The notes under the pieces are model-generated. The model did no database searches, was not told where the DNA came from, and saw only the letters and a program-made list of their open reading frames with translations. Positions 1 through 22,469 of a DNA stretch of 22,469 nucleotides are shown piece by piece. A program made the translations under genes and the position numbers. Source of the DNA: Candidatus Melainabacteria bacterium 17Bon1m (lineage in GTDB: Bacteria; Cyanobacteriota; Vampirovibrionia; Obscuribacterales; Obscuribacteraceae); contig JAVLKG010000024.1 in assembly GCA_032128875.1 (NCBI GenBank), forward strand, positions 1 through 22,469, written 5' to 3'. Numbering within the stretch: the first letter of the stretch is position 1; every line of letters starts with the position of its first letter.

Positions 1-3000
1 TTCGACACACCCGTTCCGACAGCTCTCAATATCACCAACACCAATGGCACCGTTTCAGCTTTGAATGGTGCCATTAATATTCGCGACCAAAAATTCAATG
101 CTGCGTTTGACTCGAATGTGAATGGTGGCGACTTCTTGTCGAATCAGTTCAACATCAATGCGGGCGGTGGCACCGTAAATGTCAACGTGGATAACCTGAC
201 AGGCGTCGTGAGCGGTGCAGGTTATGGTACGCACGTCACTGTCAATAGTGCCGACACCCTCAAACTGGGCGATCTCGATTTCATCGATCCGACTTTCTAT
301 AACTCTGTCGGCAACATAGATATCACTGGCAACATCACCGTTGCCGAAGCGCTGACTATCATTGCGAGCGGAAATATCACCAGTGCTAACGGCGTCACGA
401 TCACTGCTGAAGGCGGTGCCGGTGGTTTCCCAATTACTTTGATCGCTGGTGCGAATGTTTCGGGAGGAACTGATCAATCAACAGTCCCACCGATCAGTGC
501 TGGTTCTATTGGTACGATCAACGGCACATTGATTAACTCGGCAACCGGCGGTAACGTAGCACTTGGTACAGGCGTGACAATTAACGCTACTCAAGTGACA
601 GGTCCGCTTCCAGCTGACTTCAGTGGTGCGGATGTAAACATAATTGCTCTTGAAGGGACTGGCCTGACGAATGGTAACGTGTCTCTCGGTGGAGTCACCA
701 TCAATACTGGTGGTGGCGGAACTGGAGCCAACGGGAATGTCAATATTTTTGCTGGCGGAGACGGTGCAAAAACTATTGGCGCCATCAATACGGCCGGCGG
801 TTCTGGAACGGCTGGGAATGTAAATATCGTGATGGCTCAGGCCGTCAACTCATCACCCGGCGTGGATATCGTATATAACGCTAACGGTAGTCTCGGGGCC
901 GGCGGAAGCCTGGTTGCCGGTACTATTTTTGGCACTGGCACGACCACACTCGCCGGCACTATTACAGCCGGTAGTGGTTCTGTGGTCGCTAGTGCAGCTG
1001 ATGATATCAACGTCACAGGTGCTATAGCTGGCAACAGCATTCAAGTCACCACCACCACCGGTAGTGGTGGCGATATCCAGTTGAACAACACTCTGACCAG
1101 CAGTGGTGCTAGCAATCAAGTCGTGCTGCTGGCTGATGGGTCGATCACTGGGACTTCAACAGTTACGGGTACAACAGTCTCTCTGACAGCGACCAATGGA
1201 AATATTGGTACGAGCTCAGTGTCGCGTGTCAGCACGAATGCGGGTTCTCTTAGTGCAACAGCCAACGCAGCGACAGTCGGAAATGGCAATGTCTGGATCA
1301 ACGAAGCCGATGCAGTAAACCTCAACGCAAGTTCGGCCGACAAGCAATTCCTTTTGAATACGCTTGCTGCTGGTGATTTAGATGTTCAAGGAGCTGTCAC
1401 CGGCAACGACATTCAATTGACGACATTTGCTACAGGCGGCGGCAATATTCTTTTGAGCAACACCGTGACCAGCAGCGGCGGCAGCGACCAGGTCGTGCTA
1501 ACTGCTGATGGTTCGATCACTGGATCATCGACGGTTTCGGGAACAACAGTTTCTCTGACAGCGACCAATGGCAATATTGGTACGAGCGCAGCTTCACGTA
1601 TCAGCACGAATGCGACAAACCTTGACGCAACAGCTACTGCTGCGACAGCTGGAAATGGCAGCGTTTGGATCAACGAGGCAGATGGTGTAACGCTCACTGG
1701 AGGTTCTGCCAACAAGCAATTCCGTTTGAACACGCTTGCTGCTGGTGATTTAGATGTCCAAGGAGCTGTCACTGGCAACGACATTCGATTGACGACTTTT
1801 GCCACAGGCGCTGGCAATATTCTTTTGAACAACACCGTGACCAGCAGTGGTGCCGGCAATCAAGTTGTGCTTTCTGCCGATGGTTCTATCACTGGAGCAT
1901 CGACGGTTTCGGGAACAACAGTTTCTCTGACTGCTACTAGTGGAAATATTGGTTCGGGCGCAGGAGCAAGAATAAGCACGAATGCAACTAATCTGAGTGC
2001 AACAGCCAATGCAGCGACAGTCAGCAACGGCAATGTCTGGATCAACGAAGCCGATGGTGTAGTACTCAATGCAAGTTCGGCCAACAAGCAATTCCTTTTG
2101 AATACGCTTGCTGCCGGTGATGTTGATGTGCAAGGAGCTGTGACAGGCAACGACATTCAATTGACGACGTTTGCCACAGGCGCTGGCAATATTCTTTTGA
2201 ACAACACGATCACGGGCACCGGCACAGGCGATCAGGTCGTGCTTTCTGCAGACGGTTCGATCACAGGAACTTCAACAGTCACCGGTACGACAGTTTCGCT
2301 GACAGCGACCAATGGAAATATTGGTACAAGCGCAGCATCACGTGTTAGTACCAATGCGACAAACCTCGACGCAACAGCCAATGCAGCGACAGTCGGTAAT
2401 GGCAATGTCTGGATCAACGAAGCCAACGGAGTAAGCCTCAACGCAAGTTCGGCCAACAAGCAATTCCTTTTGAATACGCTTGCTGCAGGTGATGTCGATG
2501 TGCAAGGAGCTGTCACTGGCAACGACATTCGATTGACGACGTTTGCTACAGGCGGCGGCAATATTCTTTTGAACAACACCCTGACTGGAACTGGCGTCGG
2601 CAATCAGGTTGTGCTTTCTGCAGATGGTTCGATCACAGGTGCATCGACTGTTTCGGGAACTACAGTTTCGCTGACAGCGACCAATGGAAATATTGGTACG
2701 AGCGCAGCAGCACGTGTCAACACGAATGCGACTAATCTTAATGCAACAGCTAATGCAGCGACAGTCGGCAACGGCAATGTCTGGATCAACGAAGCCGATG
2801 GAGTAAACCTCAACGCAAGTTCGGCCAACAAGCAATTCCTTTTGAATACGCTTGCTTCAGGTGATGTAGATGTGCAAGGAGCTGTCACAGGCAACGATAT
2901 TCGATTGACGACGTTTGCTACAGGCGGCGGCAATATTCTTTTGAACAACACGCTCACGGGCACAGGCACAGGCGATCAAGTCGTGCTTTCTGCGGACGGT

Positions 3001-6000
3001 TCGATCACAGGAACTTCAACAGTCACCGGTACGACAGTTTCGCTGACAGCGACCAACGGAAACATTGGTACGAGCGCAGCTAGCCGCGTTTCCACTGCTG
3101 CAGGCTCATTGGCACTCACCGCCAATTCCGCGCTTGTCGGACAAGGTAATGCCTGGGTTAATGAAGCAAATGCTGTTTCGATTCTTGCTTCATCGGTCGA
3201 CAAAGAATTGAGAATTGACACTACCGCCAACGGCACAATGAGTGTAGACGGCGCAGTGAGCGGCAACGTAATTCAATTGACTACAGCCGGCGGCAGCACG
3301 AACCATATAGACGTCAATGCAACCATCACCGGAACAGGCACCAGCACGGTCGGACTCTCGGCCGGAGGCACTGGAAGAATTAGGGGCAGTGCTGTTGTCA
3401 GCGGAACAACTGTCAATGCAGTCGGCGGCGGCGGAATTGATGGCGGCACTTCATTCAGCGGTACGACAGTTTCACTCACTGCTACCACTGGTAATGTCGG
3501 CACAAGCGCTGCTTCGCGCGTCAACACGACTGCAACAAATCTCGATGTCACAGCTAATGATGTGACAGTCGGCAATGGAAACGCTTGGATCAACGAAGCC
3601 AACGGCGTAAGCGTCAACGCGAGTTCCGTCAACAAGCAATTCCTTTTGAACACGCTTGCTGCCGGCAGTATTGATATAGACGGTGCAGTCTCGGCCAACG
3701 ATGTTCAGTTGACCACATTTGGTGCAGGCCAGGCGATTAACGTGAATTCCACGCTCTCCGCTCCGTCCGTCACTCTCAATTCTGATGTTTTCAATATGAC
3801 CGGCTCTATCAATGCCGGAAGCGGTACCGTCACTATCCGTCCGATCACGAACGGCACAACTATTAGTGTTGCAGGTGGTGCTGCCACCCTAGATATATCT
3901 TCCACGGAATTGGCAAATATAACCGCCGGAACTTTGGTAGTTGGAGATAGAACTCTCAATGGTGGCATTACAGTAGGTGGCAACATTGATGTGTCCGGCG
4001 TAGGTGCTGGCGCATACAACCTGACTTTCCTCAACAACGGCAATTTCACTAGTGCCGGACAAACGATCACTCTGGGTGACAAGAATCTAGTAATAGATGT
4101 TGGCGGTTCAATCACAACCGGGACAGTCAACTCGACTAGTGGCAATGTTGACCTGGATGCCGTTGTAAACATCACTACCGGCACGACTACAACAACTAGC
4201 GGCAACGTCACGTTCAACGCAAACAACAATATCAACGCAGGCACGACATCGACCGACAGCGGCAACATCACGATGGATGCCGGCAATAACATCGTCACTG
4301 GTGCGACCTCAACCAACACAGGCACTATTAGTCTCGATGCTGGTGGAACAGTTTCCGTCGGCGACATCGTGAGCAATGAAGATGTGATTCTCATCACAGT
4401 CGGAACACTCAACGTAGCTAACATCACAACCACAGGCGATATCTACCTCAAGTCAACTGCTGGCGGCATCAACACCACCGGTGACTTGCTCGCAGATCCA
4501 ATCGTTATGATCAGCGCGTTGACCATCAGCTTGGGTGGTGACGTGACTGCCAATGACGGCATCTTGATGGTCAGCGGACAGAACATCATCACTTCGGCTG
4601 TCGGTGCTATCAATATAAATGGTTCCAGCACCGTCGGTGACGCCGGAGCTGTTACTCTCGTGGCAGGTGCGAACTTCACCGACCTAGGTATCGGCAACAC
4701 CGTTGTAATCAACGGCGCATCCGCTACAGGCGGCAACATCGACTTTACCCAAGCCGGTGGCCTCAATAGCATTACTTCCGATAGTTCTTTCGCCGGCGGA
4801 AGCGCCGGGAATATGAATCTGATCGCATACGGCACTGGAGCCGGCCTAAATGGTCGTGTCCTACTGCCGACTTCGTCGACCATTGTCACCACAGGTAATG
4901 GCGCCGGAACGAATGGAAATCTTACGGTTGTAGCCGGTGGCAACAATGCTGGCAACGGCGTTCAGCTTGGTACGATCGTCACAGCGCTTGCTGGCACCGG
5001 CGGCGATGTGGACATCTTCACGGCTGCTCCTGGAACAGGCGTCACCATCAGTCAGAACGTAGCTGATACAGGCGCGGTTACCGCAGGAACCTTCCTGGGC
5101 GGTGCAGCTCGCACCGCTAACATCACCACTGCCGACATAACTTCCGTCGGTGCTGATGTAACTGCAACAGCTGGACGCAACGCAACTTTTGGAAGCGTTA
5201 CGTCGGACACCATGGCACTCACTGCTACCACAGGCAGTCTGGCTTCGACTGGAATCATTTCAGCTACAACCAGTGTTTCACTCACAGCGAGAAACAGCAT
5301 CACTAATGCTCAATTTGCTGGTGGAATCAGCGCGCCGTCGCTCTCACTTACTTCAACCATCGGCAGCATCGGCGCTAGCGGCGATGCCCTTGTCGTGGAC
5401 GCTGCAACTTTGAGTGCCAATTCAACCATTGGCTCAGTATTCATTGCCAATCTGGCGCAAAACATACTTCTTAATGCGTCTAGCGGCAGCACATTCGAAT
5501 TGACTAGAACCAGTGCTCTGGCTGGTGACATAACTGTCAACGGACCATTGCAAGGCAACAATGTCAGCTTGATCAACGCAGCCGGCAACGGCGGAGTTGT
5601 CGTTAACGACACAATCAGCGCAATCGGTGGCGGCAATGCCACATCGGTTACTTTGACGGCAACCGGCAGCGGCGCAATCAGCACAGATGGTGCCGCGATC
5701 TCGACAAATGCCCTCAACCTCACTTCAGGTAGCGGCGACATTGGCGCCGGCACGGCAATCAATACAAGTGCCAACTCGCTTACTTTCAACACGACCGGTG
5801 ACGTATCGATCACGGATACGCGCAGCGGTACCGTAACGCTCAATGCTTCATCAGCCAACGACGCAACAGTCAACCTGACGACCAACAACTCAAGTTTGGT
5901 AATTGCCGGCAATATCGATGCTGCAAACAACTTGACCTTAACCACAGCAGCAGCAGGCACTGGAAACATCTCCCGCACTGGTGCCAGCGTCTTGAGCGCA

Positions 6001-9000
6001 GGCAACTTGCTTACATTGGCTGCCGGTGGAAACATCGGAAGTCTGGCGACTCCGATTCTTACTTCAGCCGCTTTGCTCGACGCTCAAGCGGGTGCCGGAC
6101 GCAGCATCTTCATTTCTGAAAGCGATAGCGTTTTCATCCAAAATCTCTCCGCAGGCAATGCAATCAACGTAGCTGCCGGCGGCACGATGACAATCAATGG
6201 CATGTCTGCCAACAACGTCACCTTGAGCACCACCAATGGTGGCGATATCGTGCGCGCGTCGGGAACCATAACAGCGACAACTCTGGCTCTTTCTTCCGAT
6301 TTCGGCAATATTGGTCAGACTCCGGCGGCCTTCATCACCACCACCGCCAGCAGCATCTCAGCCAACACGGCTGGCACGGTGCTCATTAGTTCTTCTAATG
6401 CAGGTACGACAAGTTTCGGAACAATCAGCGGCAGTGCAGTTGCTCTTCTCACCGCTGGCAACATGAACCTTTCGCAAGACGTGACCGGTACCACCAGCGT
6501 TTTCTTGCAAACCTCCGGCGCCGGTAACATCTCTCAGACACCGGGAACCAGCATCAATACATCCAGCCTGTCACTTAATTCGACGACCGGCAGTTTTGGT
6601 TCGCAAACCAGCTTCATCAATACAAATGCGTCCCAGGTGCGCGTGACCACGACGGGTGCTGGTGATGCGTTTGTTCACTCCACCAATTCCGTATTATTGC
6701 TCGGCAGCTCCGCTGATACATTCACTCTCGTCAGCGACGGCAGCATCGTTCAGGAGTCTGCCTCGACGACTTCGTCTAACAACCTGACTTTGCAGACGAC
6801 AAATAACGGAAGCATCACGCTTGACGGAACCATTCAGGCTCTTGCTGTAGGAGCTATGTCGGTCAACCTTCTTGCAAATGGAAGCGGCAACATTGTTCGC
6901 AATAGCGGAGCAATTACAAATGTCGGCCAAGACGTAACTCTGGTAGCTACTTCCGGCAGCGGCAACATCGGCAGTGGGGCAAATCGCCTGACTGTTGTAG
7001 GTGCCAATAGCAGCATTGCCGCAAACACATCAGGCAACGTATACCTCGATGTGACCGGAGATGCTCAGGTCTCCGGATCTGCTTCGGCTGCGCCAAGCAC
7101 CTTCAATGTGCTCGGTAGCGCAACTCTGGATTTCGGCGCTGTTAATGCGGGCAGCATCGTTGCTGTATCAACTGGCGGTCCAATCCTTGTACAGGGTTCC
7201 ATGACCAGCGCATCAACGACTGCTTTGACGGCTGGGGCGGGAAGTGACATTAGCTTCTTGGCTTCTGGAAGTATTACAGCTCCTACCTCCATCACTTTGA
7301 CTGTTTCCGGTGCGGGCGGAGAAATCATCAACGGTGTGGGTGCATCAGCATTCCTCAGCACTAATACATTGAATGCCAGCTCAGGAGCCGGTTCGATTGG
7401 CGTGACCAACAACCTGTTCACCAATGCAGCCAACATCAATGTGTCGACGACTGGCGGCAATATTGCCATCACAGATAATCTCGCGGGTGTAATTTCGCTC
7501 AATACACTCAATGCTGGTGCCGGCAATGCAACATTCGTTGCCACTGGTGTCGGCAACACGATCGACGTCGTCGGTACGGTTTCTGCTAATAACCTCAGTC
7601 TCTCAACCAATGGCGGCACTAACGGCAATATCACACTGACCAACGGTGTTACTGGAACGACTTCCGTTACCTTGTCGGCAAATGGCTCAGGAAGCATTTC
7701 CGGCAGCGGTCTGATCAACGCTCCAACTGTTACTCTCACTTCTGGTACGGGCAACATCGGTACGTTCTCCACCCGCGTTCAAACAAACGCAGCAAACCTG
7801 ACGGCTAACACAGCTGGGCAGGTTTGGATTAACGACATCAACGGAGCGGGAATCAACCTTGGTCTCTCCTCTGGTTCCAGTTTCAACCTGAGCTTTGATT
7901 CCGATCTGAACGTCAATGGTGCCATCACCGGCGCTACCATCGCCTTGACTGCCAATGGCGGGTCTGGTGCGGGTGTCAATCTCAGTGCTCCTATCACAGG
8001 CACTACTTCCGTCACTATCGCTGCGGACGGTGCTGGTGAAATTCAAAACCTTATTGGCGCCGCTGCGGTGATTACTGCTCCTACCGTCGCCCTCAGTTCC
8101 GGAAGTGGCGACATTGGCGCTCCCAATCCGCCAGGACCGAATTTCCCGATTTTCGTCAACGCTACAAACATCAGCGCAACGACAACCGGATCTATCTATA
8201 TCAACAACATCAACACCGGCACGGTGAATATCGGACCGCTCAGCGGCGATAACTTGTTCTTCACCAATGGTGGCACCATCAACGTCGTCGGCATTCTCGA
8301 TTTCATCACTGATGTCAGTTTGATCACGACGAATAACGGTTCGATCAATGTCGGGTTCAACATTCTCGCCGGCAACTCCATCACTCTTACTGCCGGTGGC
8401 AACGGTTCGGTCACACAAGCGGCCGGAACTATTTTGCAAACACCGACGCTCACCGTTAGTTCTTCAACCGGCAACCTTGGCTCGTCCACCAATCAAATCA
8501 ACACCAATGCTTCCACCCTCACCGCCTTCACTGGCGGCAGCGGCAACGCATGGATTACTGATATCAATACCGGCAATATCTTGTTAGCCGGCACCAGCGG
8601 TGCAGGCGGCACGTTTACTTTGACGGCAACAAACGCCGCTGGTACGTCAGTGACGACCGACGTCGGTGGTGTGGTGCAAGGTAATACTGCAGTTATCACT
8701 TCGCTCAACGGCAGCGTTGGAACCTTGGGTGCCAATCTGGCTACCGATTTGGTCAATTTGCAGGTGACCGCTCCAGTCAACGTATTCGTCAACGATGCAG
8801 GAAGCTTGAATTTGCTTGCCTCTTCTGCGGGCAACGGAGCTGGTAACACATTCTTCGTCAACACCAACGGCAACCTCACCAGCACCGGTGTAATCAGCGG
8901 TAACGCAGTTACACTCCGAAACTCATTCACATCAGGCGGTTCGATAACATTGGGCGCGGCTGTCAATGCAGTCACAAACATTGCTCTTATTTCGGATGCG

Positions 9001-12000
9001 TCGCTTGTTGACGGTGCCTTCACCGTACTCAACGCTCCGAATGTTGCCCTTGCTTCGCTTAGCGGCGACGTCGGCACCGCCGGTAATGCATTGGATCTCA
9101 CTTCTACAAACGTGCCTTCTACAACGACCTTTGCTTTCTCGGCACTGGGCGGAGATGTAAATGTAAGCAGCACGCTTGCTTCGGCTGTTAGCCTCAATTC
9201 AATTGTGGCAGCAGGCTTCGGCGGTGTAGATAACGAGGCTGCAGGCAATTACAGCTTCTCGAGCGCCGGCAATGTAAGCGTCGACGGAACAGTGACCTCT
9301 ACAGGTGGCGACATTGCTGTCACCTCTACCGGTGGTGACCTTACAACCAACGCCGTTGTGTCCAACACTAGCCTTGGATCGATCAGCCTTAACGGCGTTA
9401 ACGTAACAACCAACGCTGGAGTGACCGGCAATGGTGCAGTCACTTTGACTGGTACCACCAACGTCACGACCAATTCGCTGGTCTCCGGCGATATCGTCAC
9501 TCTCAATGCAGTTGGCGGTGCGCTTGACGTCAACAGCAATGTTGATGGAACCACGTCCATTAACCTCAGCTCCGCAGCTGACATAACCAACACCACTATT
9601 ACTGGTGCGGTTCTCACGACCCCTCAATTGAATTTGACCTCAACGGCTGGCAGCATTGGTTCGGTAGGAAGCCGTCTGGCGCTTACTGACGGTGTCAATG
9701 TGACCGACCCTCTGAGCATGACGCTCAACGCTACTGGTAATGCATATGTCAGCTACACCGGCGCGGATCTGACCATTGGCGGTGGAAAATCCACTGTTGC
9801 CGGCGTCTTCGACGTAAGCTCGACTGGCGATTTGACCACCACTGGCGACATCGATCCGACGGATGTGGTTCTGCATTCCGACGGCGACATGCTGCTCAAC
9901 TCAGTAATCTCGGCGACCAACTCGATCACCTTGACCGCAGTTGGCAATATCGACAACCCATTGGGTTCTCTGCAAACACCTGGAATCTTGACTGCAACTT
10001 CCGATACCGGCTGGATCGGTACGAATGCGGTGCGCCTCAACACCCAGGTCGGAACAATCGCACTGCACGCCACTCTTGACGGTGCTTATGCGACTAACAC
10101 CGGCGGAGACTTGATCGTCAATCAGTCGAATGCAGCGAATGATCTCTGCATCGACACCGAAGGCACGATGACTGTTGCCGGTGCACTCACCGGAAACGGC
10201 GTCAGCTTGTTGGCTACGACTGCCGGTTCTTTGAATGGCGATGTCTTGCTCAATGCAAGCGTCACAGCCTCCGGTCCTAACTCTCTGGTTGATATCGATG
10301 CTGACCGTGACGTGATAAGCACGGCTCCTGGCACAATCAGCGGCAACACCATCCTTGTATCTGCAGGACGTGATTTGACTGTCGGCGGTGCAATCACTGG
10401 AACCATGGAAGTTGGCGATGCCAGCGATTCCAGTCTGGTGCTCACTGCAACCGGCGCTTTCAGCAACACCGCAGGTATCTCGGGCAATTCAATCTCGGTA
10501 AATGCTGACACGATTCAGCTCAACGCTCTCGTGCAAGGCGTCAATGCCAACAACGTGGTTGATCTCACCGCAAATCAAAGCATCACCGGAGCTAACATTA
10601 ATGGCAACATTTCTGCTGAGACACTGAACCTGACTTCAGTTACCGGCGACATTGGTGGTCCTTTGGTAGCAGAACTTGTTCAGACGTCTGTAAACTTCCT
10701 CAGCCTCAATGCTGCAGGAGATGCATTCGTACTCAACAGCGGTAACGTCGCTCTCAATGCTTCCACCGTTGGTGGCATCCTCAGTCTCCAGACTGAGGCA
10801 ACTCCTGGTGATGGCGGTGATATCACAATCAGCGGCGCAATAAATGCCTCGTTTGTGGATATCAGCGCGAACGCAGGCGGCGTCAATGCCGGTAATCTGG
10901 CAATCAACGCAGCAGTTAATGGAACCAGTGACGTGTTCCTTACCGGAGCCAACAACGTAACCAGCACCGCGTCCGGTGTGGTTACCTCGCTCAACATCAA
11001 CATCACCGCTATAGCCGGCGATATGACTCTGGCCGGTAACGTAGGAACCGCTGGAGTTGGCACAGTCACGCTTACTGCCGGCAACGATGTGACGACCACT
11101 ACCGCTACCGTTGAAGGCAATGTCATCGACATAACGGCCACCGGCGGAGCTATCGCTCTGGGCAGTGCGGTCACTTCTTCTGGAGCAGGCAATTCCACGT
11201 CACTCACTTCGAATGACGACATCAATGCCGCTGCCGTTTCGCAAGTGACAGCGACAACTCTCAATCTCACTTCTACTGCCGGAAACATCGGCGTTGTCGG
11301 AACGCCAGTTTCCACAAGCGCTTCGTTTATTTCGCTCAACTCGTTTGGTGACGCGGTCATCGAACAAGATGGTGCTGTTTCCGTTCTTTCCTCCAATATT
11401 GGTGGCGATTTGAGCTTCACTACGGTAGGAACCGGCGGAGGTATCACCTTCTCCGGCGTCGTTACCGTTGCTGATGATGCAACCATCGCGACCGGTGGAA
11501 CCAATGGCGGCGACATTACGTTTGACGCTCAGTTCAATGCCAATGGTTTGAACGCCAGCACCCTCACCGGCGACATCAATGTCAACGCAGCTCTGGTAGG
11601 CACCGGTGTAAGCCCGACCATCACTCTCAATTCCGATCAAGCTCTGACGTCCACTGCAGGTGGAACCATTGCAGCCAACCTCATCAGCTTGACGGCTGCG
11701 ACAACCCTCACTCTTGGCGCAGCAGTAACAGCAAGCGGCATAGGCAACAGCATCTCGCTAACGTCTGGCAACGATATTGTTGCTGCCACTGTTGGCTTTG
11801 TCTCAACCAACGATCTGTTTATGCAATCGACCGGCGGCAGCATCGGTTCTAGCGGCAGTCACGTAGTGACCGCTGCAGACGTCCTGCGCGCGATTGCCGC
11901 AAACAACGTCTACATCGACTCTACAGTTCCGGTCATCCTGGGCAACTCGTCCGCGGGTGCAACTTCGACGTTCAGTCTGGAAACGGTAGACGCTGGCGAA

Positions 12001-15000
12001 TCCATCACTATCTCGGGCACACTTTCCGGCAACGATATTCAGATCAACTCTGCCGGTGACTTGTTCGTCAACAACTCGGTCACAGGAACCGGTGTCGGTT
12101 CTGTCGTCAATCTCGTTGGCGCCGACAATTTCACTTCCAACGCGACCGGCACCGTAAGTGGTCATACGATCTCGATTGAAGCGACCGCAGGCGCAATTTC
12201 TCTTGGCGCAGGAGTAGACAGCACCGCTGGTGGCGCTGGAAACAGCGTTTCACTTACATCGTCCGCTGACATCACGCAGGCTGCCGTTTCGCAGATCGTT
12301 TCCAGCCCGGAAACGTTGAACTTGACGTCGACATCCGGAAGCATTGGTGTTCTGGGCACTGAAATTCTGCTCAATAACCCAAATAACGTTTCGCTCAATG
12401 CAGCTACAAACGCCTTTGTCATCTCGACTGGCAGTTTGAACCTGTTGGCTTCAAGTGCTGGTGGTTTGATGCTCATCGACACCACCTCGACAACGGGCGG
12501 CAGCATTCAAGTGCTTGGAGCCGTCACTGCTGGTGATGTTTCCTTCAGTGCCGGTGGTACAAACGGTGGCAACATCACTGTCAATGGCACGATTAACGTA
12601 AGCAATGTTCTTAGCTTGAGCTCGAATCAAGGAGCTTTAGCTAACGGCGATATCGTTATCAACTCGGCAATCGGTGGCGCAGACATCAGTCTCACTGCTA
12701 CCGGCACTCTGGGTAATGGCAACATTACAGTCGACGCCGCAGTTACCGGTGGTAATAACCCCGGCGACCTCGTCTTGCTGTCAGCCAGCAATGACATCAC
12801 GACGACTGCAACCGGCACAATCTCCGGATATGACGTCTCGCTCATCGCTGGCAATACAGCCACTCTGGCTGCCAGCGTGACTGGCGGCAATCAGGTGTCG
12901 TTGCAAACCGGTGCGTCTATAACCGATGCACAGGTTGGTTTCATCTCGGCACCGTCTGTGGTGCTTACCTCCGTTTCGGGTGACATCGGCTCGATTGGCA
13001 ACTTCGTAGATACGACGGCCAGCTCGCTGACATTGAGCGCAGCTAGTGGATCTGTCTTTGTCAATAACAGTGGCAATGTCGCTCTGCAAGCAAGCAGCGC
13101 TCTTAATGACTTCCGTCTCTCAACTGGCGGAGCCAACGGTGGCAGCATCACCGTCGCTGGCGCGCTGTCGGGCAACACCATTGTTCTCGATGCCAACACG
13201 GTTGTTCAGACCGGCGATGTAATCGTCGATGCAGCTATCACTGGTACCGGTGCTGGAAATTCGCTTGGAATTACTGCGGATAACGACATCACCACCAACG
13301 CTGGCGGCACAGTTGACGTTGACAACCTTGGATTCATCGCTGGAGGCGATATCTCTGTCGGCGCTAACGTGCATGGAACCGCTTCTGCTTCCACCTTCAG
13401 TTTCACGTCCACAGGCGGATTCTCGAGCGGTGTTGGCACTCTCATCGATGCCTTCTCGGTATCGGTCAGTGGCGGCACCATTTCACTGGGTGGCACAATT
13501 GACACCACTGCGTTCGGTGCAGGAAATAACGCCAGCTTGACCGTAACCACGGGCAACCTGGACGCAACCACTGTTTCGAGTGTTGCTACAGAAACTTTGT
13601 CCTTGACGGCTTCGGCTGGAGGCATCGGTGCTCTCGGCTCTGAAGTATTGATCACGGTCGCCAATCTGTCCTTGAATGCCAGCAGTGATGCATACGTAAT
13701 CAACAATGGCGATCTCAATCTGTTGGGAGCTACTATCGGAGGCATACTCAATTTGTCCACGGATGCCGGCGGCGACGGCGGAGACATTGTCGTAAACGGC
13801 GCCGTCAGTGCGTTTGATGTGATCATCAATGCCAACGCCGGTGGTGTTTCCAGTGGTGTGCTCACCGTTAACGACACGGTCACCGGTACGGCGTCTGTTC
13901 AGTTAATCGCGGACGATAATCTCGTCACCTCGGGCCCGGCAACTATATCCGGACCATCCATTCAGCTGACTTCGACAGGTGGTGATGTTGACTTGTCCGG
14001 TGATCTGACCGGCACAGGTCTGACCAGCACGATCGTTGTGACTGCAGACGGTTCTGTGACAACTAATGCCGGTGCTCAGGTGACTGGCAATCAGATCTCC
14101 TTCGTCGCCACGACAGGATCGATCTCACTTGGTGATACGGTCACCGCCTCCAATGCGGGCAACTCCATATCTCTCACTTCCTTCAGCGACATCACTGCAG
14201 CGAACGTAGCAGCAGTGTCCGGCGAAACCATCAACCTGACGTCAACCAATGGCAACATCGGCACGCTCGGCAGTGAAGTGGCGTTCGTCAACCCGACTTT
14301 CGTCTCGATGAATGCTAACGGCGACGTGTACGCAATTTCAGATGGAGGCCTCACGCTCAATAATTCGAGCGCTGGTGGAACCTTCAGCATCGATACAACC
14401 GCCAGTTCCACCGATGGTTCTGTAACCGTCGCCGGAACCCTGACGGCAACCGACGTTTCGCTCAATCTCGGTGGCGTTGACGGAGCCGACCTGGCAGTCG
14501 CATCCGCAGCGTCGATTTCGGCAACGACTGTGTCCGCAAGCACTCAGTCTGGCGGAATTCTGGCCGGCGAGATGGACATCAGCGGTTCGGTATCTGGCAG
14601 CACGAGCATTGTACTGAACGCCGCCGGTGACATAGACAATGTCTCCGGTACAGGTACAGTGGGCGGAAACTCGGTTTCCCTTACATCGGGCGCGGACATT
14701 GGCGTGACTAACTCGCTGTTGACCAATACGCCTTCGCTTACAGTTTCTGCAACCGGCAATGCCGATATACAGAACGCAGGCTCGCTCAATCTGCAAGCAT
14801 CGACAGTAGGAGGCACTTTTGATCTGGTCGCCGGCTTCGTTGCTGGTGGAGATCTCACAGTAGCCGGTGCTGTCACCGCAGACGTTCTCAACCTGTCAGC
14901 TACTTCGGGTCTGGGAATAAATGGCGACATCACTCTCGATGCCGCTATCACTGGAAGCACATCTGTCAGCCTGACTGCTGACGGCTCCATCTTGGATAAC

Positions 15001-18000
15001 GTCAACACGATCACAGGTTCTTCCATCACCTTGGATGCAGGCTCCAACATCGACGCGACAGTAACTAACGGTGCTACTGCCCTCGACTTGACTGTCACTG
15101 CCGGTGGCAATGCCAATATCGAGTACGTAGGCACAAACACACTGACACTGAACTCTTCCTCTGCTGTTGACTTCACTTTTGTGTCGACCCAGAACAACGG
15201 CTTCTTTGCAACCGGTGGCGATTCCACATTTACCGGAGTCTTGGACATCACTGCCAACGACGTCACTAACAACAACGACATCGTTGCCACGCAAGTTAAT
15301 GTCCAAAGTCTTGCTGGAAGCGGTCTGACATTTGACGGCGGCGCCGGACCAGGCGGCACGTGGGATGCCACGACTGGAAACGTGACCGTAAGAGCGACTG
15401 CAAACGATCTGACCATCGAAGGCATCACCACTTACCTCGCGGAAGCCAGGCTCTTTGCGAATCAAACAACACAGTCCGTCATTTTGACTGCTGGTTCTGA
15501 CTCTATTGCCACAGTGCAATCCTATGTATTCACTTCAAACCTGACTGGAACCGGCACATTGACTGGTCCATGGACTGTCACCAACGCAGGCACCTTCGCC
15601 AACAATCCCGGTGATGTCACATTGTCCGGTGCACTCACTTTCGCTGGCGACGTAGCGATTATTGCTACCGGCAATATCGACCTCACCGGCGCAACCATCG
15701 ACATGAGCGGAGCATCTGGCTTCGACCTGACAATGATGGCTGGTTATGACTTCACGCCTGGTACTGGTGGAACCCAAGTAATTGATGTGACGACGCCGTA
15801 CACCAACTTCACTGCCAATGCAACCGGCGGTTCGATTATCGGCGGAGCCACAATCAATACGAGTGGAACTGCAGGCGCAGGCGGCGATATCGTTGCCATC
15901 GCCAACGGTGGCAGCAATGTCGGCAGCGGCACGATCGATCTGGGCAGCATTACTGCAACAGGCACAACTACGGGCGGCAGTGTCACTGTGATTGCAGAAA
16001 ACGGCATCACTCTGACGGGTACGGTTGATACAACCGGAACCACTGCAGGAGGTAATGTCACTCTGGCTATTGCTGATGCAGTGGTACCGGGCGCATTCCA
16101 GATCCTTAACGGAACTGCCAGCGGCGGACCAATCACTGTTGGAACTGCTACTTCAGGAAATCTCTCATTCGGATCTATCAATGCAGGCACTGGCGACGTT
16201 ACTTTGAGCGGCGCAACCCTGGTTGGTGACACGATAAGCAAGTCAGGTACGTTGACCGCTGATGAACTCACCGTTAACACTGGCGCAGGAACGGCGAACC
16301 TCGGCGCGACCGTGGTCAACACCTTGAGCGGCGCCGGTAATGGTGATGTCACCGTCAACAACACAGGTGCCCTGGCTCTGGGAACATTCTCAGGCAATCA
16401 GGACGTCGTTGCGACCTCGACAGGTGCCATCACTGGTGGTGCTGGATCTGTGGGCAGCTTGACCTTGACCGGTGATGCAACTGCAGGCAACGCAGCAATT
16501 GACCTGAACGGAACATTGACTGCGACCAACTCCGCAGACCTCACCAGTACTGGTGGCGGCGACATCCGTGGCGGCATCGATACCGCTGATCTGAGTCTTA
16601 ACTCATCCGGCGACATCGGTGTCAGCAATGCCACTAGATTCTCGTCCAATGCATCAACCATGACCGCTAACGCTATAGGCAGCGCGTTCATCAATGCGAC
16701 CAACGCAACCGGCGTGACCTTCGATGGCGCTTCCGGCGCAGGAATTACCTTCGACGTGGCATCCACTGCAAACTTGAACAGCACTGCAGCGATCAGCGCT
16801 ACCAATGTTGTACTCAACAGCGGTGCTTCATTCGACCTCGACGGCTCCGTAACCGGCACAGTCATCGATCTAACTTCCGTGAATTCGATGAACAATGCAT
16901 CGTTCAGCGGCGGTCTCAGTACTGGCGACTTGCGCTTGACCGTAACCGGCGGTGATATTGGTGCCACTGGAGCAGGTAACGAGTTTGATGTAACCAACGG
17001 AGCAAACCCGCTCAGCTTGACCATCAATACTGGTACAGGTGATAGCTTCATCGACTACACCGGCACCAACGTCTTGACTCTCCAAGGTTCTTCCGGTGAC
17101 GACTTCACTCTCCGCACCAGCGGTGTGGGCTCCAGCCTTGTTCTCGGCGCTAACTCCACCTTCAACGGTGATGTGAGCCTGACGACCAACGATCTGACCA
17201 ACGCATTCGTGTTGACCTCCAACACAGGAAACATCGACATCCAAAGCCTGGCAGGCAGTGGCTTGATCCTTGATGGCGGCGCCGGTGGTACTCTCACCGC
17301 TACGTTTGGAATTATCAATGTCACAGCCACTGCAATGGATCTGACATTGCAAGGCGTGATGACCTACACCACAGTGGCCAACTTGTTTGCCAATACCCCA
17401 GGTCAGAACGTAGTTCTGGATGTCGGCTCCAACTCGATAGCGACGGTGCCTTCGTTCATCTTCACATCGAGCTTGACCGGTACCGGTACCCTCACAGGTC
17501 CATGGAATGTTGTCAGCTCAAGCACTTACGCTAACGATCCGGGCAATCTGATCATCAATGCGAACCTGACATTCTTCGGTTCTGATATTGCTTTGATAGC
17601 TTCCGGCGATATCGACCTTACGGGAGCCAATATCGACCTGAGCGGAACCACTGGCGGCAACCTCACCATGATTGCCGGATACAACTTCCAGCCGACTACC
17701 GGTGGCACGCAAGTCAATCAAAATGTCACCACGACATACGATAACTTCACACCTACAGGTGCAGGCTCGATCATCGGTGGCTCTTCAAATATCACTTTGA
17801 ACGGTTCCAACGGTAATGGCGGCAATCTCGTTGCTGTCGCTAACGACGGATCTGTGACTCTGGGCAATATCTCCGCAACAGGCTCTGTCGGCTTCAACGG
17901 CGGAAGCGTTCTCATTATCGGTGAAACCGGCATCACAACCGGAACAATCAATACGACAGGCGATGTTGTCAGCGGCAACGTAACTCTTGCAGTCGCTCAA

Positions 18001-21000
18001 CCTGACGTACCGACCGGAACCAATTTCCAAATCCTGGCCGGTACTGTTGTTAACGGAGCCGTTTCGGTTGGTGCAGCGACTAGCGGAAATATCACTGCCG
18101 GCGCCATTACCGCAGGCGGAGCGACCGTTACTGTCACCGGTGCAAATGGTGCCTTAGACAGCATTGATCTGACCGCCGGCGTTACCGCCGATACGCTCTC
18201 GATCAATACCGGCAGCGGAACGGTAGATGCCAACACCACCATCAACACACTCAACAGCGCCGGCAACGGTTCTGTCACGGTGAATAACACTGGAGCGCTG
18301 GCACTCAATACCATCTCCGGTGCCAACCAAGACCTCACGGCAACCGCAACCGGAGCAATCACCAATAACTCCGCGTTCACTATTGAGAATTTGACATTGA
18401 CAGGTAATGCTGCCAGCGGCAACGCTGCCGTAACTCTCGCTGGTGTCACCGCGACCGTATCTGCCAACCTGGCAAGTACTGGTGGTGGAGACATCTTGGG
18501 CGGAATTAGCACTGGCGATCTCATCCTCAGCTCCTCTGGAAACATTGGAGTGGATGCTTCGACACGCTTCACCACTGACGCCTCGACTATGACGGCAAAT
18601 GCAACCGGCAGCGCTTTCATCAGTGCCACCAATGCAGGCGGCGTTACGATCGACGGTGCTTCGAGTGCAGGCAACACGTTTGATATGACTGCTACCGGCA
18701 ATCTGAGCAGTCTGGTTGCAGGAACTGTCGGTGCCACAGACGTAATTCTCAACACTGGCGGATCGCTCGATCTTGATGGCGCTGTGACAGGCACCACCAT
18801 CGATCTCACTTCTGTCAATTCGATGAACAATGCATCGTTCACTGGCGGACTCAATACTGGTGACCTCTCGTTGACTGTCACTGCTGGCGACATCGGTGCA
18901 ACCGGCGTCGGCAATGCGCTCAATGTGACTAATGGCGCAAACCCACTCAGCCTGACCGTCAACACAGGCACCGGCGATAGTTTCATTAACTACACCGGAA
19001 CCAACCTATTGACCTTGATGGGCTCCAGTGGTGATGACTTCACCGCCACTACCAGTGGCGTGGGCTCTAGTTTCGCAACAGGCGCCAACTCCACGTTCAA
19101 CGGAAACGTCAGTATCACTACAAATGACATGACTAATGCGTTTGTTCTGACTTCCGACAATGGCAACATTTCAATTCAAAGCTTGGCCGGAAGTGGCTTG
19201 ACCATCGATGGTGGAGCCGGCGGAACCTATACCGCTACGAACGGCTCGATCAACATCACGGCTACTGCCAACGATCTGAGCATCTTTGGAGTAACGACCT
19301 ACACGACAGCTGCAAGTTTGTCGGCAAGCGGAACCGGTCAATCGGTCATCCTCAATGCAGGTTCTAACTCGATCGCCAATGCGCCATCGTTCATCTTTAC
19401 GTCGAACGTGCAGTTCAACGGCGGAGTTTTGACGGATGCGCCAGGACCCTGGAGTATCGTCAATTCAGGAACGTATGCCAACGATCCGGGTGACGTGACT
19501 ATTTCAGGTGCGATCAATATTTCTGGCGGCAATCTTGCGATTATCGCTGGCGGCAATATCGACTTGACTACTGCTTCGTTTAACCTCAGTGGTACTGACG
19601 GCGGAAGTTTGACGATGTTGGCTGGATTTGATTTCGAACCTCAAACAGGCGGAACTCAAGTCAACAACGATGTTTCCACCATCTACGATACCTTCACCAA
19701 CTCAGCCGGCGGCGGTAACATCATCGGTGGAGCAAACATCAACTTGAGCGGCAGCGCTGGCAATGGTGGCAGTTTGATCGCACTAGCCAGTGGCGGTACC
19801 ACAAATGCTGGAACTGTCACCCTCGGCAATATCACCACCAGTGGTACCAATAATGGTGGTGCTGTGCGGATTATCGCTAGCAGCGACATTACAACCGGTA
19901 CGATTACAACAACGGCAGGAACAGGCACTAGCGGTGCAGTTGATCTCACTGTCGGTACGCCGACAGTCGGAACTGGCACTAACTTCCAGATCCAAGGCGG
20001 CGTCATCATTACCGGTGCCAACACAATAGCGAATTCCGACCTGACAACAGGCACCATTACTGTGGGTACTGTTGACGCTGGATTCTCGAGCTTCTCTGCA
20101 CAGACCGGTGCAAGTGGCGCGATTGTGATCGGTGGTGGTTTGTCCGTCAAAGACATCACTCTGAATACAGGAGCGTTAACCTTCTCATCGCTCACCACGC
20201 TTTCATCTTCGTCAGATTCCAATGGCGATGCGGGAACGATTGACGTTACTGCATCTTCAGTGACCGTCACGGGTGGTCATTTGATTCTGCAAGCTCAAGG
20301 CACAGGTGCTGGTGATGGCGGAGTCATTGACTTCACCTATAACAATGCCGGAGGTGTAACTCTCGGCACCAGTGGTTTGTTCGAGTTCCAAATTGGAGCG
20401 TCCGGTACTGGAGACAGCGGAAGCGCGACCTTCACTTCGCTCGGTAATGTGACTCTTGACTCCAACTCATTCGTTGGCACTTCCGGCGGAAACGGCGGTG
20501 GTGCTGTGGTCAACACGACACAAGGCATCCAAGTTCTGAGTGGAGCATTCGACCTGACTGGAGCACTTAACGGTGCAACCATTTCGTTGACTGCTGGTGG
20601 TGGAATGGATCTCTCTTCCGGAGTTGGATTCTTCGATCAAGCAAATGCTGTGGGAGCCAACTCAGACGGTGGAACCTTGATTCTGCGTGCTGCAAGCTAC
20701 ACGCTCCCGACCGGCGTCGGCTCTGCATCGGACAACGCACTCGAGCTGACAGCAACGGCCAATGGAACCGGCAACAACGGAACCATCGTCTTCGAAACTA
20801 ACTCGACGACGCAAATGTTTGTCGGCGCTCCGGCGAAAGCACCGAAAGGCGCAGTGTTCTTCGTGACTGCTAATGCTTCTGGCGGTGGCGGAGATGCAGG
20901 TTCGATCACACTGGCAACAGGTGGCAACTTGACCGTCAACGACATTACTGACCTCAGTGCAAGCAGCTCGTTCTCGGCGGGCGGTGACCTGGATGGTGCA

Positions 21001-22469
21001 AGCTACAGCTTGACTGCAGGTCGCAACGGAGCAGCAGGCAACTTGGTGGTTAATGGAGCTCTTAACGGTTCCAGTAACAACAATGGAGCCGGTGGAGACA
21101 TCACACTGGCGTCTCGCTCGACACAAGCATTCGTTGTCAACTCAACGAATGTGCCGAAGAATGGAACGTTTGGAGCCGTAACGACTGACGATGGTGGTGT
21201 GGTGACAATCTCCAACCTTAATGGTGGAGTGACTCTCACAACCGCTACTTCAGTCAATGCTGATGACCAGAGATACAGCCTCGGCGGCAAGGGTAAATTT
21301 ACGGCTAAGGGCTTCACCGTGAGTGCTCTCGACAATCTGTCGATTAACTCGACTGGCGCCTCTGCACTCACCAACCTTTCAGTCAACACTGCCAATCTCA
21401 GTGTCACGACTGTAGGCGGAACGGTGTCGCTGACCAACGTATTCAACGGCAGCTGGAATTTGGAGGAGGCAACCGGTAAGACGCTGACCATCACGAGCAC
21501 GAGCGGTTCTGTAACTCTGAATGACATGTCAGCAAGCGCTGGAAACATCCTCGTCGTCAACAACGCAGGTAACCTGGTTGTAGCGGCAGATGCAGAAATC
21601 ACAGCAACCAACGGAGCACTAACGCTGCAGAATACAAACCTCAGCGGACAAATCCTCGTTGGAACAAACGCTGTAGTTGAAACCGCTGGAACCAAGGGCA
21701 AAAACACTACTCTCACGGTATCGACAACGATTCCGAAGACTGGAACCAACCCAACCACAACAACCGTTGGCAATATCAACGTGACAGTGGCAGGCGATGG
21801 AGTTGTGTTCTTGGGACCAACGGGCGCCGTCGTCGCTGCCTCGCCTGTGAACGTAAACGCTCTGAACAAGAACGTGATCTTCAACGGTCCAGTTGGCTCG
21901 ATCGTTCTGGGCGCAGGTTCTACAGTCACAGCTGATCCGCCGTCAACAGCGTCGGCAGCAGTGGCAAGTGCTCCAGCGGTAGCAGCAGCTCTGCCAGCTC
22001 AACCTGCAAGCACGAGCGGATTGTTCGGATACGTATCTGAAAACGCAACGGTCACATCAGACCTCAGCGTACTCAGCTTGAATGCTGCACCGCAAATGCA
22101 AGTAGCCAACAACGCTGCGTTGATGACTGCAACCAACACCGCAACATTGGCTGCTCAAGCCGGATTGCCTGTCTCCAACGGAGTGGTCAATATCGGTGCG
22201 ATCAACACCGGAGTGAGCGGATTGGCTAGCGTTGTACGCACGACATCGGTGGACACCGCTGAAGAAGACAATTCATATGTAGTTGGCTTCTGCAGCACGA
22301 CCGGCGAAACTCAAGCCGCAATCTGCACTGATGCAGAAATCGGCATGAACGCTGGAATGCAAGGTGTCCAAACGGTTCAACACGGCGAGCGTGTCGTAAT
22401 CAAGAAAGGCAACGTACTCTTCGTTCCATTCAAGGCTACGACAGTGGAAACACCGAACGGAATCGTCCA
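1..22469 (+). CDS. Giant (>7,489 aa, partial at both ends) filamentous haemagglutinin-like beta-helix repeat surface protein / putative adhesin with C-terminal FecR-like domain
   Basis: Frame 1 reads FDTPVPTALNITNTNGTVSALNGAINIRDQKFNAAFDSNVNGGDFLSNQFNINAGGG... at base 1 and ...ERVVIKKGNVLFVPFKATTVETPNGIV at the end. I found no stop while translating. The ORF track has no frame-1 + ORF, as expected if the frame never closes. The sequence is G/T/N/A/S/V/I/L-rich with alternating hydrophobic beta-strands and GN/GD/GG turns, typical of beta-helical exoproteins. The coding call is near certain; the product name is an inference. Confidence 0.95.
1003..3720 (+). repeat. In-frame 372-bp (124-aa) tandem repeat: 5 near-identical full copies plus 2 diverged copies
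   Basis: QVV(L) codons start at 1117, 1489, 1861, 2233, 2605 and 2977, an exact 372-bp spacing. The unit is approximately QVVLSADGSITGxSTVxGTTVSLTATNGNIGTSAASRVSTNATNLxATANAATVGNGNVWINEADGVxLNASSANKQFLLNTLAAGDxDVQGAVTGNDIxLTTFATGxGNILLNNT. A 42-nt identical run occurs at 2071, 2443 and 2815. Copy 6 diverges after ~3090; copy 7 (~3349-3720) has an extra ~20-aa segment. Confidence 0.97.
4081..4380 (+). repeat. 60-bp (20-aa) tandem repeat, about 5 copies; probable single beta-helix rungs
   Basis: GNVDLDAVVNITTGTTTTTS (4141), GNVTFNANNNINAGTTSTDS (4201), GNITMDAGNNIVTGATSTNT (4261), GTISLDAGGTVSVGDIVSNE (4321), preceded by KNLVIDVGGSITTGTVNSTS (4081). Confidence 0.85.
10618..11450 (+). repeat. 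Dispersed ~280-aa duplication, copy 1 (copy 2 at 13591-14440)
   Basis: ETLNLTSVTGDIG...LSLNAAGDAFVLNSGNVALNASTVGGILSLQTEATPGDGGDI...ISANAGGVNAG...GAIALGSAVTSSGAGNSTSLTS...LNLTSTAGNIG is colinear with copy 2. Confidence 0.75.
13591..14440 (+). repeat. Dispersed ~280-aa duplication, copy 2
   Basis: ETLSLTASAGGIG...LSLNASSDAYVINNGDLNLLGATIGGILNLSTDAGGDGGDI...INANAGGVSSG...GSISLGDTVTASNAGNSISLTS...INLTSTNGNIG; starts 2,973 bp after copy 1. Confidence 0.75.
15118..20090 (+). repeat. In-frame ~1,935-bp (~645-aa) tandem super-repeat, about 2.6 copies (A ~15118-17049, B ~17050-18984, C ~18985-20090 partial)
   Basis: xYxGTN starts at 15121/17053/18988 and QSLAGSGL at 15304/17242/19177. GPW...(F/Y)AN(N/D)PG and LTM(M/I/L)AG(Y/F)xFxPxTGGTQV occur in all three copies. 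NSMNNASF occurs at 16882/18817 (1,935 bp apart), and VTNGANPLSLT.NTGTGDSFI in A and B. Confidence 0.95.
21931..22260 (+). other. End of beta-helix (ADPP) and Ala/Pro/Ser-rich low-complexity linker within the giant CDS
   Basis: ADPPSTASAAVASAPAVAAALPAQPASTSG...; the G-N/D-I turn periodicity is lost after 21940. Confidence 0.75.
22261..22469 (+). other. Start of C-terminal globular domain: Cys-x10-Cys followed by FecR-like beta segment (truncated)
   Basis: EEDNSYVVGFCSTTGETQAAICTD (Cys codons at 22291 and 22324), then ERVVIKKGNVLFVPFKATTVETPNGIV. This resembles the FecR-family pattern v.L..G...F.V.....f.V.Tp.g.v. Only about 28 residues of the FecR-like segment are visible. Confidence 0.5.

Follow-up and report, generated by a model that had tools for sequence, protein, structure and literature searches.

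A stop-free contig of an Obscuribacterales genome is the middle of a giant gene for a candidate beta-helical surface fibre

The stretch of DNA analysed here (hereafter, the window) comprises 22,469 nucleotides of Candidatus Melainabacteria bacterium 17Bon1m, order Obscuribacterales (contig JAVLKG010000024.1 of assembly GCA_032128875.1). It is the middle of one real gene of ~8,000 codons, the product of which is reasonably likely to be a Sec-exported surface fibre or adhesin composed of beta-helix rungs and held by a C-terminal domain (C-domain). Surface proteins that are both giant and beta-helical have been known before. What we regard as new is a so far undescribed family specific to one order, with end domains that are both unclassified, with no recognisable translocator and with an expansion of this scale, together with the apparent use of a FecR-like fold, as judged from structural models, as a portable C-terminal module.

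Results

One open frame spans the entire contig

Frame 1 of the forward strand runs without a stop through bases 1-22467, i.e. 7,489 codons (7,489 aa), and is open at both ends. With a GC content of 51-55% along the whole window (~53% overall), chance cannot explain an open frame of this length. The original prediction, made from the letters of the window, had claimed a frame open from base 1 to the end and a product of roughly 700 kDa or more, and both points were borne out: none of the 7,489 codons is an in-frame stop, and the fragment computes to 719 kDa. It has a pI of 4.05, with 440 D and E residues (5.9%) versus 80 K and R residues (1.1%), and T, G, A, S and N together make up 63% of its residues. 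The prediction had further described the frame as hidden, since it was absent from the track of open reading frames (ORFs). The frame was indeed missing by default, but this merely reflects a convention that drops frames running off both ends; when open-ended frames are allowed, it forms the first row of the ORF list.

The window equals contig C24 of a 35-contig, 7.55-Mb genome (93% complete, 4.5% contamination), so that no extension is possible inside this assembly. Alignment to a complete paralogue on contig C25 (C25a) placed the window start at residue 372 of that protein and the window end ~146 residues before its C-terminus, giving a full-length estimate of 371 + 7,489 + 146 = about 8,006 aa, or ~770 kDa by proportion. 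Over bases 1-369, identity is 72% with the ORF start on contig C26 and 70-73% with two places in C25, while the last 401 bases share 97% identity with the opposite end of C26. Both contig ends are thus cut inside domains common to the paralogues.

For an assessment of reproducibility, the contig sets of four public runs were compared with bases 1-20000. Three runs from one sample (X1, X2 and X3) each contained a 19,075-base contig matching 3027-20000 with zero differences, which by its size would extend to about base 22101. A run from a different study (X5) contributed eight listed pieces of 814-2,958 bases with zero differences to the window, and other contigs of this run differed from it at ~14 places, mostly within 5264-5418. 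Bases 1212-3027, a region of 372-base tandem repeats, were split into short pieces of 2-3x depth in the short-read contigs, leaving the copy number of these repeats without independent confirmation. In 20 runs from 8 studies, an 8-kb stretch taken from the window was present at least in part. An error of a single assembly thus cannot account for the sequence.

The 19-kb contig found in the DNA run of this sample recurred in three libraries labelled as RNA-seq, at 1/4 to 2/5 of the depth of the DNA run; in these libraries it could be derived from a full-length transcript or from carried-over DNA. As a side observation, two RNA-library runs have one contig each that links base 83 to base 15089, thereby omitting 15 kb. 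This junction, with just 21 bases on its short side, is probably a repeat-induced misjoin.

A repeat unit of the body is predicted to fold as a beta-solenoid

Toward its C-terminal end, the window protein contains three super-repeats of ~645-680 aa (aa 5004-5647, 5648-6292 and 6293-6972; bases 15010..20916 of the forward strand), delineated by a hidden Markov model (HMM) of the unit that found three full-length matches in the window (E 1e-195 to 1e-212). We folded the piece spanning aa 5003-5650 (648 aa) with AlphaFold2, using an alignment of 16 paralogous units. The resulting model was all-beta with short strands and had a mean predicted local distance difference test score (pLDDT) of 91.4 and a predicted template modelling score (pTM) of 0.75. 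On the basis of this model, the unit is a beta-solenoid.

Structure searches pointed in the same direction. Foldseek returned no match to the folded unit below E 1e-3, with best rows from EtpA (E 0.016, probability 0.84), Ag43, Pet, the secretion domains of filamentous haemagglutinin (FHA) and HMW1, Hap and HxuA. VIA-align, which covered 48,161 chains, scored the curli subunit CsgA at Z 18.8, EtpA at Z 18.4, HxuA at Z 16.8 (347 residues aligned, root-mean-square deviation (rmsd) 4.7), the secretion domains of EtpA and FHA at Z 16.7 and 13.6, respectively, and Fap2 at Z 10.3 (544 residues aligned); the alignment to EtpA, with an rmsd of 18 over 544 residues, indicates that the two are differently bent. 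Tailspikes and Ag43 were also among the structural neighbours, all 50 of which, as listed, we take to be beta-solenoids or beta-helices, judging by their titles rather than by coordinates.

The giant single-chain beta-solenoid that had been proposed for the window thus holds where tested, i.e. for aa 5003-5650 with their high pLDDT and solenoid neighbours, and no non-solenoid fold was predicted for this piece. For the remainder of the body outside the folded class, the amino-acid composition suggests a solenoid as well. An apparent resemblance of the folded unit to most of the protein in uncorrected BLAST was rejected, as the HMM and composition-corrected BLAST disagree with it.

Hydrophobic autocorrelation revealed no single rung period. 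In the first 250 residues of the model, manual counting from DSSP output gave about ten three-strand rungs, or ~25 aa per rung. A beta-helix rises by 4.8 Å per rung. For 7,300 residues, this would put the length of the rod at ~140 nm (range 120-170 nm), if it is continuous and straight, which is of the same order as, albeit somewhat shorter than, the 150-180 nm suggested before. Likewise, the stated size of more than twice that of FhaB came down to about twice, the 719-kDa fragment comparing with ~370 kDa for FhaB (PMC13232309).

The C-terminal domain resembles FecR-type periplasmic domains in fold

The window ends within a second conserved module. Its last 69 aa (aa 7421-7489; 22261..22467) match a C-domain query and are cut by the contig end; they comprise a 'DNSY.VG...C.D' lead-in and the first strands of what is modelled as a FecR-like sandwich. 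C-domain searches recovered this region as C24:22201-22467 (E 5.6e-22) and 22228-22467 (E 1.1e-21).

To represent the complete domain, we modelled the last 240 aa of the paralogue C25a from 50 aligned sequences (pLDDT 87, pTM 0.83). In the model, residues 63-180 form a beta-sandwich, after which residues 182-221 form helices. Foldseek ranked 4m0n/4m0h first (E 5e-3, probability 1.0), together with PupR 6ovk (probability 0.96). In VIA-align, the top of the 48,161 chains was 4m0h_A (Z 9.7, rmsd 2.6, 103 residues aligned), followed by PupR 6ovm_R (Z 8.0, rmsd 3.1, 101 aligned), with the next row at Z 4.1. The top two structural matches are FecR-type anti-sigma periplasmic domains. With its sandwich, its helices and FecR-type neighbours that include no barrels, the C-domain is not a beta-barrel.

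At the level of sequence, the relationship is far less tangible. Aligned by hhalign with 16 true FecR domains from cyanobacterial genomes, the C-domain gave a P value of 0.0068 over 75 columns, in the register expected from the fold. A Gly-Thr pair (G94-T95) that is invariant in these 16 domains has no counterpart in the aligned C-domain segment. In the absence of both a Pfam FecR match and this Gly-Thr pair, we consider the modelled C-domain to be FecR-like in fold, not a demonstrable member of the FecR family. The C-domain profile found nothing better than E 1.5 among PDB sequences, and 10/10 diverse C-domain proteins had no Pfam match.

The genome's three other complete copies of the C-domain are 61-92% identical to the reference copy, whereas units of the body share 27-57% identity with the folded unit. 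The C-domain is therefore far better conserved than the bodies, which would fit a conserved cellular partner better than variable targets.

Organization of the window protein

Upstream of the super-repeats, the protein is built from further segments, all encoded on the forward strand. It begins in a conserved neck that follows the N-terminal domain of the family (N-domain) and spans aa 1-200 (bases 1..600), as indicated by identity to C26 and C25; aa 1-49 align with residues 372-420 of C25a, and the neck occurs in relatives, too. The signal peptide and N-domain of the window's own gene lie upstream, in unassembled sequence. Bases 1081..3080 harbour 372-base (124-aa) tandem repeats that are 80-90% identical (Tandem Repeats Finder: period 372, 5.4 copies, 83% matches). 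In the protein, the array extends over aa ~360-1200, with six W-anchored copies in aa 432-1052 and a seventh, diverged one at 1196. Diverged units of ~200 aa, assigned to the class of the 124-aa repeats and sharing 33-49% identity with each other, occupy aa ~3401-4800 (10201..14400). A graph based on composition-corrected BLAST joins aa 401-1400, 1801-2000, 2401-2800 and 3401-4800; with the protein divided into 200-aa chunks, the same statistics yielded a class A of 15/38 chunks and a class B covering aa 5001-6600.

The repeat body is closed by a conserved cap, from 'LTLQNTN' to 'ADPP' (aa 7207-7314; 21619..21942), which is also present in relatives. Between cap and C-domain lies a low-complexity linker of ~105 aa rich in A, S, T and N (aa 7315-7420; 21943..22260), and in alignments of relatives both length and sequence of this linker are variable.

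Database searches with the window protein were largely silent. Pfam gave 0 matches with either half of the protein and NCBIfam 0 on the two pieces searched, including the first half; there was thus neither an RTX nor any other Pfam match in it, including Fil_haemagg (PF05594), and across the window protein and its paralogues no family-level sequence match reached a curated cut-off. Window aa 1-1200 and 3401-4400 had no match among PDB sequences, and an Atlas feature search with aa 1-1000 returned unnamed clusters, with DUF5649 at rank 26, as weak leads. N-glycosylation sequons were not enriched (205 observed vs 191.6 +/- 11.2 in shuffles).

The window belongs to a family restricted to Obscuribacterales

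A six-frame scan uncovered at least 8 related giant frames in this genome. Besides the window itself (C24; 7,489 aa), the frame on C26 (5,934 aa) is open at both ends. Complete members reside on C21 (4,995 and 3,060 aa), C25 (C25a; about 3,330 aa) and C9 (2,872 aa), and frames open at the 3' end on C25 (3,470 aa) and C30 (2,347 aa). By summed frame lengths, the eight genes account for roughly 1.4% of the genome's DNA. C21, C25 and C30 start with the last 120, 32 and 56 residues, respectively, of yet another member, which indicates that the genes are organized in tandem arrays and that the assembly breaks inside their conserved end domains.

A signal peptide and an N-domain were found at 6 complete N-termini, and C-domains or pieces thereof at 11 places. 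Complete members share one order of parts: signal peptide, N-domain, repeat body, cap ('ADPP'), a linker of ~100 aa, lead-in and C-domain. The signal peptide is of Sec type, having a basic n-region, a hydrophobic core and an 'AALA' site. The N-domain is ~370 aa long with an invariant core ('ITLG...GG...G..V.A.Y.A'), and its profile had a best E of 1.7 against PDB sequences. Bodies throughout the family are acidic and rich in T, G, A, S and N, and the C-domain (~225 aa) is introduced by 'DD.SY.VG...C.D' and ends in 'YQHYFKPRMTA'.

What an earlier reader of this DNA could not see is that the protein is not unique but one member of a large order-specific family with proteins of up to 14,400 aa. 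A search of 1.84 billion cluster representatives with the C-domain gave 1,158 matches at E<=1e-3, of which 703 remained at E<=1e-10. Of the 150 matches listed, most end within a few residues of the C-terminus of their host protein, and the hosts of the 150 measure 99 to 7,943 aa; the shortest are probably fragments, while short complete members consist of signal peptide, linker and C-domain. Across 201 genomes of the class, the C-domain occurred in 33/47 and 2/2 genomes of the order's two families and in 0/151 of nine others, and the N-domain core in 25/47, 2/2 and 0/151. The C-domain profile found nothing in 200 further genomes of the phylum. In these sequence searches, neither end domain was found outside the order Obscuribacterales. 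A collection of species genomes, searched with a single protein, agreed with this distribution in that 8/8 loci found are from Obscuribacterales or Melainabacteria metagenome-assembled genomes. As had been anticipated for the window's product, named relatives are annotated just as 'hypothetical protein' of Candidatus Obscuribacterales. Our literature search, which covered listings and the starts of abstracts, turned up no paper on this giant family, and the passages seen of a preprint on giant genes (10.1101/2023.11.21.568195) make no mention of the Obscuribacterales lineage.

Individual genomes carry many of these genes. Seven have at least 23 matches each to the N-domain core, in host frames of up to 14,113 aa. 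Frames with a C-domain reach 14,400 and 10,978 aa (genome G112), 9,534 and 9,475 aa (G190), 8,273 aa (G151) and 8,270 aa (G100). At the other end of the size range, N-domain proteins of ~1,000 aa end just past the cap, without linker or C-domain, in 6/6 cases examined. The C-domain is therefore a portable, optional module that follows bodies from ~100 aa to >14,000 aa.

Secretion genes and gene neighbourhoods

Searches for components of two-partner secretion (TPS, type Vb) gave the following picture. The TPS domain (PF05860) remained without a match at E<=10 in the 8 N-terminal regions searched and was not found in complete paralogues either; a genome-wide search also gave 0 matches, but the control genomes were equally silent and this latter negative is hence unvalidated. 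PF03865, which represents ShlB/FhaC-type TpsB proteins, had 0 matches in the 93%-complete genome, with one sub-cut-off match in the controls and thus unproven sensitivity. Just after the N-domain, 3/5 paralogues showed Fil_haemagg likeness of 20.7, 16.9 and 15.6 bits (cut-off 21.5), and DUF5649 reached 23.6 bits after the N-domain of paralogues, below its cut-off of 25. The N-domain itself scored 0.80 to Fil_haemagg clusters in the Atlas feature search, a weak lead.

To survey gene neighbourhoods, ORFs were clustered from 14 flanking regions of giants in 4 relatives and from two loci of the genome itself. Recurrent neighbours were Ser/Thr kinases, ABC-type pairs and an OmpH/Skp-like gene of ~190 aa, and nothing else. 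OmpH/Skp-like genes lie divergently upstream of three giants (L039:1896-2456, L041:692-1267 and L042:5460-6041) in G190 and G151, two genomes of one genus, and constitute 2/3 of the OmpH genes of G190 and 1/3 of those of G151. A LTXXQ/Spy-like gene (L045:114-806) is located directly upstream of the 8,270-aa gene of G100. This genome's own three OmpH-like genes lie away from family genes. Genes for an exosortase (EpsH) and an extracytoplasmic function (ECF) sigma factor are found directly upstream of the C9 paralogue and co-oriented with it (G000:C9:110000-126000, L019 1213-3718), C9 being the sole one of the genome's 6 assembled family gene starts with such neighbours.

A proposed surface fibre held by its C-terminus and the alternatives

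How might such a protein reach the surface? In the scenario we favour, i.e. a Sec-exported fibre held by its C-domain, the chain would cross the inner membrane by Sec and stay unfolded in the periplasm with the help of chaperones. The OmpH/Skp-like and LTXXQ/Spy-like genes next to four giants of relatives speak for this. It would pass the outer membrane with its N-terminus first and fold outside into an acidic rod of ~120-170 nm. The linker of ~105 aa would thread the outer membrane, and the folded C-domain would remain periplasmic as a stopper or docking module. On this view, members that carry a C-domain would form fibres bound to the cell, and those that lack it would be shed. The role of the fibres would likely be in adhesion, aggregation or contact with other cells. 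A bolder version, in which neither TpsB nor a barrel is involved, a portable periplasmic FecR-like tether docks to a conserved envelope partner and proteins devoid of the C-domain are shed, would amount to a new mode of export or anchoring in a diderm lineage and to a novel use of the FecR fold; we put it forward tentatively and have considerable doubts about it.

Several observations weigh against the proposal of a tethered fibre. As to the solenoid, the folded repeat class makes up only 26% of the fragment (aa 5004-6972), the 124-aa class is tied to it by a single strand motif (hhalign P 7e-4, 64 columns, probability 26%), and 15/38 chunks link to nothing under the strict statistics of composition-corrected BLAST. 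The window's N- and C-termini are unassembled and their architecture is borrowed from paralogues. As to the C-domain, Pfam FecR (PF04773) had no match in the complete paralogues, 10 diverse members or the genome, in searches whose control found matches in 5/14 control genomes; the hhalign probability of the C-domain versus FecR was just 5.6%; and its position in the periplasm rather than at the distal tip is only a proposal. Neither an outer-membrane translocator nor a docking partner was identified in 30 flanking ORFs, and the Pfam scan of these ORFs, from 12/14 flanks plus the two own loci, showed no conserved pore or TpsB. The chaperone neighbours stem from three genomes of two genera, 3/4 of them from one genus, and hence represent few events. 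Finally, the RNA-library runs contain the gene but do not prove its transcription, as no silent control stretch was usable.

The likeliest competitor is a very divergent type Vb exoprotein, whose N-domain would be an unrecognised TPS domain, whose pore would be of TpsB/Omp85 type and whose C-domain would act like the FhaB prodomain and possibly be removed. The nearest solved folds to the body do belong to the TPS adhesins EtpA, HxuA and FHA, the signal peptide and conserved N-terminal module are as expected of this class, and both the sub-threshold scores of Fil_haemagg (at best 20.7 bits vs 21.5) and DUF5649 (23.6 vs 25) and the weak Atlas link (0.80) to Fil_haemagg clusters lean the same way. 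The beta-helix likeness is generic, however, with curli, tailspikes and lyases scoring alike; PF05860 went unmatched at E<=10 in the 8 N-terminal regions, even if the genome-wide negative is unvalidated owing to its silent controls; and PF03865 was found neither in the 93%-complete genome nor among the 30 flanking ORFs. On balance, we regard a type Vb protein as possible but unlikely. The abundance of members without a C-domain (6/6 of those of ~1,000 aa) would also suit fibres that are shed as matrix, sheath or S-layer-like material rather than anchored, the C-domain being a cleaved intramolecular chaperone or export tag. The 'ADPP' cap with its disordered linker is a plausible processing region, and an exosortase gene precedes the C9 paralogue. 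The exosortase association is confined to one locus, though, and the family C-terminus does not have the form of a PEP-CTERM tail; there is no linked protease gene, and the C-domain also occurs on very short proteins that have no body to chaperone, which together render this explanation quite improbable.

The fold of the C-domain, shared with the periplasmic domains of FecR and PupR, and the position of C9 directly downstream of an ECF sigma-factor gene could further be taken to mean that the protein is a cell-surface signalling sensor whose FecR-like C-domain controls that class of sigma factor. Yet the N-terminus carries just a cleavable-looking signal peptide, with no cytoplasmic anti-sigma domain or membrane anchor, the Gly-Thr pair invariant in true FecR is not kept at the aligned position, and a sigma-factor gene accompanies just 1/6 assembled gene starts, so we deem a sensor function very improbable. 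Little speaks for a misassembly or for a dead repeat tract that is never translated: while the contig is broken at both ends and the 372-base repeats are unresolved in short-read contigs, there are 7,489 stop-free codons, zero differences over 17 kb in three runs of one sample, zero-difference pieces in the run of another study, and an architecture common to intact paralogues and relatives. We consider the chance of this to be next to negligible.

Comparison with known surface proteins

The tethered fibre that we favour would share features with several known systems. Like EtpA, FhaB/FHA, HxuA and HMW1, family members have an N-terminal signal peptide and an acidic, T/S/N/G-rich body modelled as a long right-handed beta-helix; they differ in that no TPS domain or TpsB was detected and in a body 2-4 times longer. 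In FhaB, a C-terminal part stays outside the rod, in the periplasm, and the proposed working principle of the C-domain would resemble this. We know of no FecR-like C-terminal domain in EtpA, FhaB, HxuA or HMW1. With FecR and PupR (4m0h, 6ovm), the likeness lies in the beta-sandwich fold (Z 9.7 and 8.0) and in a weak profile-profile match of the same register. Here, however, no anti-sigma domain and membrane helix precede the domain, which is placed at the C-terminus of a secreted giant; the Gly-Thr pair is absent, and a family-specific helical hairpin and the 'YQHYFKPRMTA' tail are added.

Adhesins of the LapA/MpIBP type would have in common with the present family the proposed principle only, namely a giant fibre held by a small folded domain too bulky for the outer-membrane pore. 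They are type I secreted without a Sec signal and possess an N-terminal plug as well as immunoglobulin-like and RTX repeats. The family described here instead has a Sec signal and a predicted beta-helix body, its candidate plug is C-terminal, as in a mirror image, and no pore has been identified. Fap2 and other giant type Va autotransporters likewise have a very long beta-helical passenger; in contrast to these, the C-domain is no beta-barrel.

Soil, aquifers, drinking water and sludge commonly contain Obscuribacterales, non-photosynthetic relatives of cyanobacteria of which hardly any have been cultured. At least 23 family genes are encoded in some of their genomes, and the longest frame measures 14,400 aa. 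Provided that the fibres are real structures of the cell surface and at least 100 nm long, they would probably dominate attachment, aggregation and cell contact. The N-domain and the FecR-like C-domain are two conserved modules that are as yet unstudied, and a rod of ~770 kDa would have to cross the outer membrane without a recognised translocator. On the practical side, genes of this family cause assemblies to break, and an ORF list that excludes open-ended frames will miss them.

Further features of the window and of related loci

The strand opposite the giant frame contains by-product ORFs of up to 329 aa. Six of the larger antisense ORFs (249-328 aa as scanned, the four longest included) had no Pfam match, and Rfam gave no match in the window.

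At G000:C21 (L016:9440-11742), two ORFs of 391 and 377 aa follow the C21b gene in the same orientation and overlap by one base. Neither had a Pfam match, nor a counterpart in the other flanks examined. Ser/Thr kinase genes with tetratricopeptide or leucine-rich repeat tails were present in 5/14 flanks (L035, L036, L039, L041 and L043), three of them in tandem in L039; the recurrence of kinases near the giants may just reflect their abundance in these genomes. Genes for sugar-nucleotide enzymes and PMT_2-type glycosyltransferases are located just upstream of two giants in relatives (L034:12862-15578; L032:12800-13828).

The ~1,000-aa subclass, seen in G190 and G151 (L082-L085), is numerous and composed of signal peptide, N-domain, helix and cap. 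Frames of 14,113 and 10,226 aa occur in G062 (C1 and C52), and the 14,400-aa and 10,978-aa frames of G112 (C12:~174000-251000) are arranged tail to tail in convergent orientation.

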